Shown here: piece by piece, positions 42,479 through 47,176 of the stretch | How the letters are laid out: the number at the start of each line of letters is the position of its first letter | Position numbering within the stretch: position 1 is the stretch's first letter | DNA from: Pseudomonadota bacterium | Lineage (GTDB): Bacteria > Pseudomonadota > Alphaproteobacteria > Caulobacterales > Parvularculaceae | Length of the DNA: 64,000 nt | Assembly: GCA_049324555.1 (NCBI GenBank) | Contig: JBMOOR010000157.1 | Coordinates: 23,563-87,562 of the forward strand | Direction: 5' to 3' | Translations under genes and position numbers: made by a program | The notes under the pieces: model-generated | Told to the model about the DNA's origin: nothing | What the model saw: the letters and a program-made list of their open reading frames with translations, nothing else | Databases searched by the model: none

Positions 42479-42507
42479 TTGCATTGTGAGGCCAAATGAC
42501 GTACATT
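42479..42507 (+). promoter_or_regulatory. sigma70-type promoter of the TA-recombinase operon
   Basis: TTGCAT-N17-TACATT, overlapped by imperfect IR CCAAATG..CATTGG. Confidence 0.6.
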
Positions 42508-42543
42508 GGAGGAGAAATGGAAATTCGGTTTGGAAGCCCCCCA

Positions 42544-42852
42544 ATGCCACGCAAGCAAGCAAAGACCGAACATCGGGACGCCCTGGGCCGGGTCGAACGG
42601 CTCGGATTCCGGATCGACGAGGAGACGAAGGATCTCATCGAGCGCGCCGCGCATCTATCACGGCGCAAGGTGAGCGACTTCTGCGTCACCGCGCTCGCCG
42701 AGACCGCGCGCAGGACCATCGCCGAGCACGAGACGCTCATCCTTTCCGACCGCGACCGCAAGGCCTTCTTCGACGCGCTCACCAATCCGCCCGAGCCAAG
42801 CGAACGGCTGAAGCGCGCGCTCGCCGAACACAAGCGCCGCGTCGCCTCCTAA
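42544..42852 (+). CDS. DUF1778 RHH antitoxin (TacA/AtaR-like); alternative start 42517
   Basis: RLGFRIDEETKDLIERAA...VSDF...LILSDRDRKAFFDALTNPPEPSERLKRA. Confidence 0.9.
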   Translation: MPRKQAKTEHRDALGRVERLGFRIDEETKDLIERAAHLSRRKVSDFCVTALAETARRTIAEHETLILSDRDRKAFFDALTNPPEPSERLKRALAEHKRRVAS

Positions 42853-42875: not shown

Positions 42876-43601
42876 ATGCAAGACCAAATGCCGAAACCTG
42901 TCACCCAGCCGATTGAGGTTTACTGCGCACTCATGGAAGAGGTGAAGCGCCGCATCGCGGTTGTGCGGCAGTTCACCCATGGAAAGATTACGCTCGGACG
43001 CGACGATTTCGACGCCGAGACCTTATGCGTACACCTCAGAAAGATTCTTGAGACGATTGCCTTCGGGTCGCTCGTCGCGCATCGCGATGCTTATGAGTCC
43101 GTACATAAGGACCTCGAAAGCCGCTGGCGCGCGAAGGAAATACTCACGCGCATCGGGAATGTTCACGCCAACTTCTATCCGAAGCCCGTGACGCCCGGCC
43201 AAATTCACGGCAAATGGCACATGGAAGAGGTCTCGACCGGCTTCCTGACGCAAACCGAGTTCGAGACGCTTTACGACAAGTGCGGCGACATGCTGCACTT
43301 CTGGAATCCATATCGCGCAGGCCCGCGGATGATGGATTTCGGGCGCAGCCTCGACGAATGGTGCGATCTGATCGAGAACCTGCTGCGCCATCACATTGTA
43401 TGGATACGCACTGGAGCCGAGCCGCGTGTCTGCGTGGATGGTGTGCCAGAGTCGGGCGAAGGCTGGCTGATCTATTTGAGCCATCCCAAGGACGGCAAGA
43501 CGCATGCGTTCCGGTTCGAGCCATCGCCGTCAGAACCCGCAACTCGTGATGATGCCGGAGTCGCTCGCGACGCCGAGACATTCAGCGCAACGCGGGTCTA
43601 G
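42876..43601 (+). CDS. Hypothetical helical protein, HEPN-like (241 aa)
   Basis: Clean ORF between antitoxin and toxin; LCVHLRKILETIA and LYDKCGDMLH resemble the N- and C-terminal HEPN/DUF4145 helices. Confidence 0.6.
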   Translation: MQDQMPKPVTQPIEVYCALMEEVKRRIAVVRQFTHGKITLGRDDFDAETLCVHLRKILETIAFGSLVAHRDAYESVHKDLESRWRAKEILTRIGNVHANFYPKPVTPGQIHGKWHMEEVSTGFLTQTEFETLYDKCGDMLHFWNPYRAGPRMMDFGRSLDEWCDLIENLLRHHIVWIRTGAEPRVCVDGVPESGEGWLIYLSHPKDGKTHAFRFEPSPSEPATRDDAGVARDAETFSATRV

Positions 43602-43606
43602 TTTGC

Positions 43607-44128
43607 ATGGCGCCGCCGCGGCCGGACCTGAAGATCGAGCCGCTCGGGTCCCATCACGATCGCGAGGGATTCGCCTGTGGCGTGGACAGCCTCGACCGCT
43701 ACCTGCGGACGCAGGCGAGCCAGGACGTGCGCCGCAAGGCGAACGGCGTTTTCATCCTCGTCGAGCCCGAAAGGCCGAAGACCGTGCTTGGCTACTACAC
43801 GCTCTGCGCCACGGGGCTGGCGCAGGGCGATGTCCCCGCCGCCGCGCGCAAGCATGTGCCGCGCTATCCGCTGGTCAGCGCCACGCTGATTGGCCGCCTT
43901 GCGGTCTCCGAAGCACGGCAAGGGGAGCGGCTGGGCGCGATGCTGCTCGCCGACGCCGTGCGCCGCGCCCATGCGAGCGCCTCGACCGTCGGCTCGTCGA
44001 TGCTGGTGGTGGATGCGATCAATGAGCGCGCCGCCGCCTTCTATGAGGGCAACGGTTTCGTCCGTCTGCCGGAGTCATCGCGGCTCATCCTGCCCATGCA
44101 CGTTATCGAGAAGATGCTGAAGCCATGA
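43607..44128 (+). CDS. GNAT acetyltransferase toxin (TacT/AtaT-like)
   Basis: HDREGFACGVDSLDRYL, LGYYTL, LIGRLAVS...QGERLGAMLLADA, LVVDAINERAAAFY. Confidence 0.9.
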   Translation: MAPPRPDLKIEPLGSHHDREGFACGVDSLDRYLRTQASQDVRRKANGVFILVEPERPKTVLGYYTLCATGLAQGDVPAAARKHVPRYPLVSATLIGRLAVSEARQGERLGAMLLADAVRRAHASASTVGSSMLVVDAINERAAAFYEGNGFVRLPESSRLILPMHVIEKMLKP

Positions 44129-45807
44129 CAGATGCTACACCAATACGAAGCAACGCCGCGACGGCCGGCGCGCCGCTGAAAGCGGCGCTCTATCTGCGCG
44201 TCTCGACCGTGCGGCAGGCCGAGCATGACGTGTCGATCCCCGACCAGCGCAACCAGGGCGAGGCATATTGCGCTTCGCGCGGCTATCAGCTCGTTGAAAC
44301 TTTTGTCGAAGCCGGCGCTTCGGCCACCAACGACCGCCGGCCCGAGTTCCAGCGAATGATCGAAGCCGGCACGTCGAAACCTGCGCCCTTCGATGTCGTT
44401 GTGGTTCACAGCTTCTCGCGCTTCTTCCGCGATCACTTCGAGTTGGAGTTCTACGTCCGCAAGCTCGCTAAGAACGGTATCAAGCTCGTCTCCATCACGC
44501 AGGAGATGGGCGACGATCCGATGCACGTCATGATGCGACAGATCATGGCGCTGTTCGACGAGTATCAATCCAAGGAAAACGCCAAGCACGTCTTGCGCGC
44601 GATGAACGAGAACGCCCGGCAGGGCTTCTGGAACGGCGCGCTGCCGCCGATCGGCTATCGCATAGTCGCCGCCGAGCAGCGGGGATCGAAGACCAAGAAG
44701 AAGCTGGAAATCGACCCGTTGCACGCCGACACGGTGCGGTTGATCTATCGACTGTTCATTGAAGGCGATGGCGTATCCGGGCCGATGGGCGTCAAGGCCA
44801 TTACATGCTATCTCAACGAACGTCGCATCTTCACCCGTGACGGCGGGCGCTGGGGCCTCGCACAGATCCATGCCGTCCTGACTCGCACGACCTATATCGG
44901 CGAGCACAGGTTCAACGCCCGCTCGCACAAGGACCGGGAGAGGAAGCCCGAGAGCGAGGTCGCGATCATGGCTGTGCCGCCGCTGATCGACCGCGAGACC
45001 TTTGATGCCGTGCAGGCTCGCCTCAAGTCACGCCAACCCATGGTGACACCCTCGCGTGTCTCAAGTGGCCCCACGCTACTCACGGGCATCTGCTTCTGCG
45101 CCAAATGCGGGGGCGCGATGACGCTTCGGACTGGCAAGGGCAGCGCGGGCGGCATGTATCGCTACTACACCTGCTCGACGAAAGCGCGGCAGGGCAAGAC
45201 CGGTTGCAAGGGCCGTTCGATTCCGATGACCAAGCTCGACCATCTTGTCGCCGATCACATCGGGGATCGCTTGCTTCAGCCCGAGCGGTTGGAGACCATC
45301 CTTGCCAGTGTTCTCGACCGCCGCCAGGAGCGCACCGAGCGGCGCCGCGAGCACCTTGCCGAACTCAACAGACGGATCACCGAAACAGATCAACGGCTCA
45401 ATCGGCTTTACGACGCCATTGAGGCCGGCGTGGCCGATCTTGATGACCCCGCTTTGAAAGAGCGCATCGCCGGCCTCAAGGCGCTTCGGGACCAGGCTAA
45501 CGCTGATGCTGAGCGCACGCAGGCATCACTGGACAATGACGGCAACCAAGCCGTCGGTGTCGACATGATCCGAACTTTTGCCCACACCGCCCGCGAACGG
45601 CTGCGACTGGAAAACGGCGGCTATCGGCGGGATCACCTGCGCGCGTTGGCGCAGCGCGTCGAGGTGGCCGACAAGGAGGTTCGCATCATGGGAACGAAGT
45701 CGGAACTGCTCCGCACCCTGGTCGCCGCTTCAAGCGGGAAATCGGCGGCTGTTGGCGTTCGCAGTTCTGTACTGAAATGGCGCACCCAACAGGATTCGAA
45801 CCTGTGA
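44125..45807 (+). CDS. Large serine recombinase (ICE integrase)
   Basis: ALYLRVST catalytic Ser, [16 protein letters not shown], recombinase domain, Zn ribbon CAKCG...YYTC. Confidence 0.95.
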
Positions 45808-45854
45808 CCTCCACCTTCGGAGGGTGGCGCTCTATCCAGCTGAGCTATGGGTGC
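45778..45854 (-). tRNA. tRNA-Arg (anticodon CCG), ICE integration site
   Basis: Minus strand GCACCCATAGCTCAGCTGGATAGAGCGCCACCCTCCGAAGGTGGAGGTCACAGGTTCGAATCCTGTTGGGTGCGCCA; stem CCACC/GGTGG, loop CT-CCG-AA, CCA end; 77 nt. Confidence 0.97.
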
Positions 45855-45865
45855 ATCGCCGTTGC

Positions 45866-45894
45866 GCCTAGCCCGAGTGACGGACGACGGTCAA
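45866..45894 (-). promoter_or_regulatory. Promoter of tRNA-Arg
   Basis: Minus strand TTGACC-N17-CTAGGC. Confidence 0.6.
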
Positions 45895-46255
45895 CGGATT
45901 CGGCTGTTTTCTAACTTACTCCCGGATCGAGGGCGCTTCAATGCGCCAGCCTATGCATCCGCCTTCGTTCGTACGCTTCGCGTCGCTTACGCGAGATTCA
46001 TTCAGCTTGCAGCGGCCTATCTTACAAACTGACAACCGCTTGTTTTTCTGTTCCCTTTCTGACTCACCCCTCACCGAAAACTGCTTGACACATCCCTTCG
46101 GAGGGCAACTCTCTATCCTGCTGAGCTCCGGATGCTGCAGGATATCCCTTAGCCGAATGAGGGTGAGCGGCCAACGCTGGCAAAGCGATGCCGATTTCAC
46201 GCCTCGTTGGCGGCCCACAAGCTCGGTCATGCTTAGCCGAAGGGAGATCTTCGCC

Positions 46256-47176
46256 ATGTCGCTTCTACGCTTCGCCGCAGCCATCGCCCTTTTTGCCGCC
46301 GCTTTCGCCGCCTGCCCTTCCCTTGCGAAAGAGGCGGACGCCGCTGCGAAAATCGCGGCTCCGCCGCTTTGGCGCATATCGGACGGAAAAAGCACGGTCT
46401 ATCTATTTGGCGAGATTGGCCTTGCGCCGGAGAAGGCGGACGCTGGCGCGCGCTGGCGCACGCTCGCAGTCGTCAAAGCGATCGATGAATCCGAAACCGT
46501 ATGGCTCGAAGCGCCTGTCAGGGAGCCGGAAACGCAAGCGGCCGCCAACCGCATCTTCTCTGAGGAGGGCATGCTCCCTAAAGGCCAGCGCCTGTCCTCC
46601 AACATGCCGCCAGAAACGGCGATCGCGCTCAGCGGCGTCGCCGCGAAGGCGGGCCTTGCGGCAGGCGCGCTCGAACCGCTGAAACCCTGGGCTGCCTTTG
46701 TCGTTCTTTCTTCTCGGGTCAATGCGGAGAGAGAGGGCGGCGAGACGATTGAGGAAGCGATCCTCAAAGAGGCGCGCGGGCGGGGGCGCAACTTGCGTTA
46801 TTTCGATACGGTCGAAAATTCGCTCCGTATTCTGACGGATATGCCTCACGAGACGCAGACGCAAATGCTGGCGCAGCTCGTCGCCGATTTTGACCGCCAG
46901 CGCTCCGGCGCGGAGGCCGGCTTCGAGGCGTGGCGAACCGGAGACCTCGCCGCGCTCGACGCCTATCTCATCGCGAGGATGCGCGCCGATGCGCCGGAGG
47001 CTTATGAGCTGCTGGTCGTGCGCCGCATAAAGTCGCTGGCGAACGGCGTTGGCGCGGCGCTCAAAGATGGCCGGACGGCGTTCATATCGCTGAGCGCCAG
47101 CTATCTTGTCGGACCGGACGCCCTGCCCGTTCGCCTTCAGGAAATGGGCCTGTCGGTCGAGCGCCTTGGCGAATAG
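46256..47176 (+). CDS. TraB/GumN family protein
   Basis: Signal peptide; PPLWRISDGKSTVYLFG, LKPWAAFVVL, WRTGDL, ASYLVGPD. Confidence 0.8.
   Translation: MSLLRFAAAIALFAAAFAACPSLAKEADAAAKIAAPPLWRISDGKSTVYLFGEIGLAPEKADAGARWRTLAVVKAIDESETVWLEAPVREPETQAAANRIFSEEGMLPKGQRLSSNMPPETAIALSGVAAKAGLAAGALEPLKPWAAFVVLSSRVNAEREGGETIEEAILKEARGRGRNLRYFDTVENSLRILTDMPHETQTQMLAQLVADFDRQRSGAEAGFEAWRTGDLAALDAYLIARMRADAPEAYELLVVRRIKSLANGVGAALKDGRTAFISLSASYLVGPDALPVRLQEMGLSVERLGE

Follow-up and report, generated by a model that had tools for sequence, protein, structure and literature searches.

The large serine recombinase (LSR) gene at positions 44125-45807 (plus strand) of the DNA studied here probably encodes the integrase of a 52.4-kb ICEMlSym-like integrative conjugative element. 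The element appears to cross over within a short core at the 3′ end of a tRNA gene, which would give the recombinase gene two different 3′ ends according to its state, integrated or circular. We put the probability of this reading at roughly 80%. The DNA is a 64,000-nt stretch (hereafter, the window) of the 117-kb contig C157 (JBMOOR010000157.1, 23563-87562) in a 310-contig assembly of a Parvularculaceae bacterium (GCA_049324555.1).

In its integrated form the gene encodes 560 amino acids with the Pfam domain set Resolvase, Recombinase and Zn_ribbon_recom (PF00239, 1.4e-30; PF07508, 6.2e-18; PF13408, 1.1e-15). The Resolvase domain covers residues 20-167, and YLRVST was invariant in an alignment of 46 sequences. 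ARAGORN detected one tRNA gene in the window, tRNA-Arg(CCG) (45778-45854, minus strand), which is the sole CCG isoacceptor of the assembly. The open reading frame (ORF) of the recombinase overlaps this gene by 30 nt (45778-45807), running antisense through the CCA end (TGG), the acceptor 3′ strand and the T arm; its TGA stop codon (45805-45807) is the antisense of TCA at the border of the variable loop and the T stem. A preliminary description of this DNA had held that the recombinase C-terminus and stop codon are encoded by the antisense of the tRNA, and the ARAGORN result together with the ORF limits confirmed both the coordinates and the reading. The tail codons T Q Q D S N L and the TGA stop (45784-45807, plus strand) belong to the attB (B′) side, and in near-identical elements this tail follows the host tRNA. 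An AlphaFold2 model of the protein has a confident core with long coiled-coil helices at residues 386-433 and 442-471. Residues 523-560 have a predicted local distance difference test (pLDDT) score below 50; either of the two alternative tails is therefore predicted to hang on a flexible linker.

The same overlap recurs in relatives. Three congeners (G002, G017 and G018) carry LSRs that are 38-42% identical to this one, adjoin the same gumN-asd-linked tRNA and enter its antisense in the same frame. The G018 gene terminates, as here, 30 nt into the tRNA (...DSNL-stop), and those of G002 and G017 extend 66 nt into it (...DSN(P/L)WPLPSEGNALSS-stop), because a single tRNA base changes TGA to TGG. 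A survey of public genomes, one scanned per species, yielded 80 loci with LSRs 75-89% identical to ours in Nitrobacter, Bradyrhizobium, Rhizobium, Mesorhizobium, Paracoccus, Sphingomonas, Brevundimonas and other Alphaproteobacteria. At least 47 of the 80 loci have an intact tRNA starting exactly at the W codon (TGG), in the same frame, and a tRNA 3′ fragment occupies this position in the majority of the rest. The intact genes comprise tRNA-Arg (five anticodons), tRNA-Ser (four) and tRNA-Glu (two), and the reading into tRNA antisense noticed in the window thus holds for homologues at other tRNAs. Since congener LSRs of about 40% identity and the surveyed loci all keep one frame, the arrangement is, by this comparison, a family trait far beyond chance. 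A homology search returned 4382 LSR relatives at E ≤ 1e-50. Among the 120 best homologues, the tRNA-derived integrated tails take dozens of forms, from 4 to about 45 residues in length; endings containing ...DSN... occur in 112 of these 120, at many lengths.

The position of the crossover was deduced from comparisons of element borders. In Paracoccus, Mesorhizobium, Kaistia and Stakelama, copies of one element that are 99.7-99.9% identical over 4.6 kb end in four different tails, and each tail corresponds to the tRNA at its own locus. Allorhizobium sp. Av2 (G041) carries an element of 59.5 kb twice, once at tRNA-Arg(CCG) and once at tRNA-Arg(ACG), and the two copies are 99.97% identical. Their identity stops on the right at TGGCGCACCCGA, i.e. 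...CTGAAATGGCGCACCCGA, and starts on the left at GAAAATGGCGCGCCGTC.... When the flanks of Av2 copy B are joined, the resulting sequence corresponds to an uninterrupted 304-nt stretch of a relative (92% over 306 nt), and the tRNA in this empty site is directly followed by its own trailer. Genome G007 was also considered as an empty site and was rejected, as it holds another conjugative element. Host flanks at 24 attL sites are variable right up to TGG, and the base 3′ of TGGCGC is tRNA-like in attR and element-like in attL.

With the Av2 left end as a guide, attL of the present element was located at C157:16990. It reads ...gaccggtttgcagttttatacgggaa-TGGCGC-gccgcgccgggtgaagatgagaactacacctacacgatagccctccaaaatccctcctaa, a motif with this single match in the assembly and none in 25 relatives. 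An attempt to find the left border through synteny with congeners failed, as the downstream flank of the tRNA is not conserved. The sequence common to attL and attR is TGGCGC alone in the present element and AAATGGCGC in Av2, a core of 6-9 bp. A search of the window, the whole assembly and the complete Av2 genome revealed no duplicate of the tRNA 3′ end. Taken together, the host-matched tails, the lack of a duplicated tRNA 3′ end, the empty site and the flanks that vary up to TGG place the crossover inside TGGCGC (45778-45783), i.e. in codons W552-R553, the antisense of the tRNA 3′ end GCGCCA. The earlier proposal that the att crossover lies inside the integrase gene is thereby upheld by the host-specific tails of near-identical elements and by TGGCGC as the only attL/attR identity.

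A classical tDNA island would behave differently: it would bring the tRNA 3′ half with it, cross over in the anticodon loop or T loop, and have the stop codon inside the element, so that the tail stays constant. Tyrosine-integrase islands follow this pattern as a rule (PMC4383910), and it could be seen in several loci where nothing of the tRNA but its 3′ half, up to the anticodon loop, follows the LSR, as well as in a tRNA 5′-half remnant at 46095-46135 in the window. However, in six of the loci with only a fragment, the gene of a P4-like tyrosine integrase starts directly after it, with a weak match in a seventh, which would indicate a second, independent island. The host-specific tails, the joined flanks matching the empty site and an attL holding TGGCGC only are likewise contrary to such an island. 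A diverged tRNA 3′ fragment in G002 (contig C116) was tried as attL of the G002 island and rejected, since its context is unrelated. No directly repeated tRNA 3′ half that could serve as attL was present in the window, the assembly or the complete relative, and the classical model was ruled out on this ground; we regard it as extremely improbable.

The left half-site of attP, the P arm, lies within the ORF at 45757-45777 (plus strand), where GTT CGC AGT TCT GTA CTG AAA encodes V R S S V L K. Among 33 distinct family members, the third codon positions of the P arm are near-invariant, with a mean entropy of 0.53 vs. 0.97 in 40 upstream codons, and the family pattern for the seven codons before TGG is GTT NNN AGT TCT GTN CTG AAA. 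Such freezing of synonymous sites is as expected for a P half-site, and this sequence would therefore serve doubly, as codons and as a recombinase half-site.

Joining the element ends in silico gave the predicted circle junction ...CTGAAA-TGGCGC-GCCGCGCC... for the present element and the predicted attP junction ...CTGTACTGAAA-TGGCGC-GCCGTCTCAGGCGATGATGAG... for Av2. In the joined form of the present element, the ORF terminates in ...SSVLKWR-AAPGEDENYTYTIALQNPS-stop, vs. WR-TQQDSNL in the integrated form. The preliminary description had proposed that excision exchanges the tRNA-encoded tail for left-end sequence; the located attL and the translated junction agree with this, as the attP-encoded tail is not identical to the integrated one and is itself conserved. 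The two isoforms may also differ in stability or directionality, as the same description suggested, but this is a hypothesis. A search with the pattern TGGCGC-N9-GGN GAN GAY GAR AAY TAY found the excised-form tail in 21 of 28 genomes with Arg-type LSRs and in 1 of 24 with Ser/Glu-type LSRs, and the reversed-pattern control gave no matches. In the 13 genomes for which the contig of the LSR is known, the pattern lies on this contig and on the same strand, 11-61 kb upstream. The translated tails, acidic and aromatic and 15 residues long, follow WR-A-x-x-G-[DE]-[DE]-[DE]-N-Y-[VITF]-Y-[AST]-I-[ATP]-L, with the family consensus AAPGDDENYVYAIAL.

Conservation of the left end spans 51 nt from TGG, about twice the usual LSR half-site. 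Codons 12-17, which the search pattern does not fix, show a codon-like entropy profile (position 2 << 1 < 3) with synonymous changes (CTC/CTA/TTA and ATA/ATC/ATT), and conservation collapses directly beyond codon 17. Judged by this profile, the excised tail is conserved as coding sequence, with purifying selection apparently confined to the circular-form tail. All three features are hard to reconcile with a neutral by-product, in which the P arm merely happens to lie in the last codons, the two isoforms are equivalent and the left end is conserved as the P′ DNA half-site. This is nevertheless a serious rival, which we consider possible at less than even odds: integrated tails are free to vary in length and sequence and the elements are not lost, the linker that carries the tail is predicted to be disordered, and the stop after ...IAL is not fixed. 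Similarly, McMurdie et al. judged the ssrA-encoded end of the Dehalococcoides recombinase DsiB unlikely to be functional (PMC3146451).

In the mechanism that we propose, the right half-site of attB would consist of the acceptor 3′ strand and the T arm, its left half would be whatever follows the tRNA, and the left half-site of attP would be the last seven integrase codons. Integration would keep the tRNA sequence and duplicate no tRNA fragment. The integrase gene would have two 3′ ends because the crossover lies upstream of the stop codon. In the integrated state, the ORF would run into antisense tRNA up to the first chance stop (here giving WR-TQQDSNL); in the circle, it would continue into the left end of the element and a conserved peptide (here WR-AAPGEDENYTYTIALQNPS). 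An LSR catalyses attP × attB recombination unaided, and attL × attR recombination requires a directionality factor. Selection seems to act on the tail of the circular form but not on that of the integrated form; the former should therefore be important to the enzyme that the circle produces, perhaps through rapid, SsrA-like turnover or by helping attP × attB integration. Once integrated, the gene would then yield an enzyme that is in effect tail-less and excises together with a directionality factor.

The host SsrA tag ANDNYSEEFALAV resembles the tail ending ..DENYVYAIAL. By this analogy, the circular-form tail ..G-D-D-E-N-Y-V-Y-A-I-A-L might be a flexibly tethered, SsrA-mimicking degron, a tentative suggestion under which the integrase of the free circle would be short-lived and integration would remove the degron. 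If this holds, integration would be limited to a time window and followed by a stable tail-less enzyme controlled solely by the directionality factor, and the structure of its gene would tell the element whether it is integrated. In conjugative elements this would be the serine-integrase counterpart of the integration-dependent switch in mycobacteriophage BPs, present in thousands of alphaproteobacterial elements.

Several points weigh against a two-ended integrase gene with a functional circular-form tail. The tail cannot be essential for catalysis, since the integrated enzyme must still excise. About half of the conserved tails, including the one studied here (which adds QNPS), run 1-4 residues past ...IAL, and a strict C-terminal degron reading is weakened accordingly. 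The circular junction and the attP-form protein were not seen directly: none of the 120 best homologues has the excised tail, no natural attP-form protein was present in PLSDB plasmids, and no protein reads into the 26 attL sites in attP form. Roughly the first 25 bp of the tail conservation could reflect a P′ half-site instead of coding constraint. Finally, three of the five possible dinucleotides within TGGCGC are palindromic (GC, CG, GC), and to our knowledge a palindromic crossover dinucleotide would be unusual for an LSR. Manual comparison of the dyad motifs AGTTCT (P arm), AGAACT (P′ arm) and CGAAC (T loop) gave no single equidistant centre; therefore, we make no claim on the central dinucleotide.

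The gene arrangement could instead act at the level of transcription, with the integrase transcript running antisense through the tRNA, the convergent tRNA promoter damping the integrase or the reverse, and the tail being irrelevant. The convergent geometry is indeed kept across the family. However, neither a promoter-like nor a terminator-like site was found in 45300-46400, and the codon-level conservation of the left-end tail would be left unexplained. We consider this reading unlikely, and the repression by convergent transcription that had been suggested in the preliminary description gained no support.

Among known systems, the phage-type model LSRs of phiC31, Bxb1, A118/LI and SPbeta (SprA) share the domain set of the present integrase (resolvase, recombinase, zinc ribbon and coiled coil) and likewise have short attP/attB identity and attP beside int. 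We know of no tRNA target and no ORF spanning its own attP among these model enzymes. In mycobacteriophage BPs and its relatives (clusters G, I, N and P), attP lies inside an ORF and integration removes a C-terminal extension; in BPs this ORF is the repressor gene and the extension is an ssrA-like degradation tag, and the BPs integrase also has a C-terminal tag (PMC4557955). The present gene shares with this system attP inside an ORF and a C-terminal extension that integration would remove. The difference is that the split gene of BPs is a repressor and its integrase is of the tyrosine type, whereas here the integrase itself is split and the degron is proposed from resemblance only.

In Dehalococcoides, the gene of the CcrB-like serine recombinase DsiB always overlaps att and reads into the antisense of ssrA, giving a variable C-terminus, and McMurdie et al. 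considered that dsiB is perhaps fully functional solely on the circle (PMC3146451). Both systems thus have a serine recombinase gene with a 3′ end that overlaps att and enters the antisense of a tRNA or tRNA-like sequence. The Dehalococcoides system differs in its transfer-messenger RNA target, a 20-bp direct repeat, an inferred T-loop crossover and a second small recombinase, DsiA; moreover, a conserved circular-form tail was not reported for DsiB, and the recombinase family and the hosts are different. Myxophage Mx8 is the studied example of attP inside the integrase coding sequence, with integration at a tRNA locus changing the 3′ end of the gene, the C-terminus (IntP/IntX) and the behaviour of the integrase (PMC6070905, citing Tojo 1996 and Magrini 1999). 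Mx8 resembles the present case in the crossover within the integrase ORF and the C-terminus altered by integration, and differs in that Mx8 Int is a phage tyrosine recombinase, while the present enzyme is a conjugative-element LSR with a 6-bp core at the CCA end.

A literature search found no description of this alphaproteobacterial LSR family or of a conserved circular-form tail, and the family is apparently large and undescribed. Its conjugative and other integrative elements would insert at the CCA end of tRNA-Arg, tRNA-Ser or tRNA-Glu with no duplication of the tRNA, so that they would escape island-finding programs that rely on a displaced tDNA fragment. An integrase gene with two 3′ ends chosen by recombination, one of them conserved, may offer a handle on regulation by an element's own DNA rearrangement. 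Genome engineering could benefit from an integrase that works in many genera and whose recognition depends chiefly on a single half-site, the tRNA acceptor and T arm, which are conserved universally. In 2014, the authors of Islander stated that no serine recombinase was known to have a tRNA gene as its target (PMC4383910), a statement that would need updating.

The whole element occupies C157:16990-69345. Its part in the window, positions 1-45783 (plus strand), was recognised by Pfam conjugation genes, and its left end lies 6.5 kb before window base 1. The backbone (window 1-42186) has Pfam matches to ParB-like, DUF736, DNA methylase, DUF2840, S26/TraF, DUF3363 relaxase, TraG, TrbB and TrbE; TrbJ-TrbI and DUF2274 were named from operon order, from TrbI/DUF2274 homologues in G007 (76% identical) and from reading of the sequence. 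Towards the right end, a DUF1778 antitoxin gene, named from its translated sequence (42496-42852), an inserted ORF (42876-43601) and a GNAT toxin gene (43607-44128) lie on the plus strand, and the stop codon of the toxin gene overlaps the LSR start (ATGA, 44125-44128). The search for a second recombinase upstream of the LSR thus found this toxin-antitoxin pair as its neighbours and no such gene. The LSR is the sole Recombinase-domain protein of contig C157, and a tyrosine integrase (Phage_integrase) had no match on the contig. At C157:17196-17788, just within the element's left border, the translated sequence reads as a HigB/HigA-like toxin-antitoxin pair; if this reading holds, the element would therefore carry a toxin-antitoxin module at each end.

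The tRNA-Arg(CCG) 5′-half remnant (46095-46135, minus strand) lies 281 bp from the intact tRNA-Arg(CCG), at the position that the ancestral tRNA has in relatives. Together with about 45 nt of upstream similarity it extends over 46095-46181 (minus strand), ending just past the anticodon loop. In congener G003, tRNA-Arg(CCG) is split at the anticodon loop, and not restored, by a 48-kb island that encodes a P4-like tyrosine integrase; the island has a complete but divergent tRNA-Arg(CCG) of its own, about 240 bp in from its other end (L019 6893-7244; L020 5554-7126). The remnant in the window fits the trace of an older tyrosine-integrase island that split the ancestral tRNA in this way. Its ancestral position therefore suggests a replacement tRNA from an older island, and the tRNA that adjoins the LSR may be this island-borne copy, not the ancestral "host" gene. 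Integration at the 46095 remnant of an element bearing a complete replacement tRNA was considered as well and rejected, since the LSRs of G002 and G017 abut the tRNA without such a remnant.

Immediately left of attL, at C157:16879-16989 and thus about 6.6 kb before window base 1, lies a 120-nt remnant from the 3′ end of a second LSR gene, which is G017-like (60% identity over 40 aa, E 4e-10) and continues in frame into the element's left-end tail. This remnant therefore indicates that an older element formerly occupied the same tRNA and that elements stack in tandem at the CCA end. A similar junction of remnant and tail was present on the Agrobacterium plasmid pAtCG920 (L149). At six attL sites in several genera (L128, L133, L135, L143, L144 and L146), the sequence ..cggcggttat..gagggnaatcggcggtatt recurs immediately left of TGGCGC; it may mark the border of a further element family with the same tRNA end as its target.

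LSR copies were also observed on the Enterobacter hormaechei plasmid pCAV1668-85 (L148) and the Brevundimonas plasmid pBH3a (L147), about 87% identical over the 53 C-terminal residues compared. They share the same upstream DUF6516 and helix-turn-helix genes, reside on resistance plasmids of IncR and other types near insertion sequences and mer/aph genes, and have tails shortened after WR (WRAIC-stop and WRTTMASKPTAAR-stop). In congener G002, contig C113 holds 21 tRNA genes in about 3 kb (L026 149-3170), among them several tRNA-Arg and tRNA-Ser genes, an array that could be a phage-type or island-type cluster.

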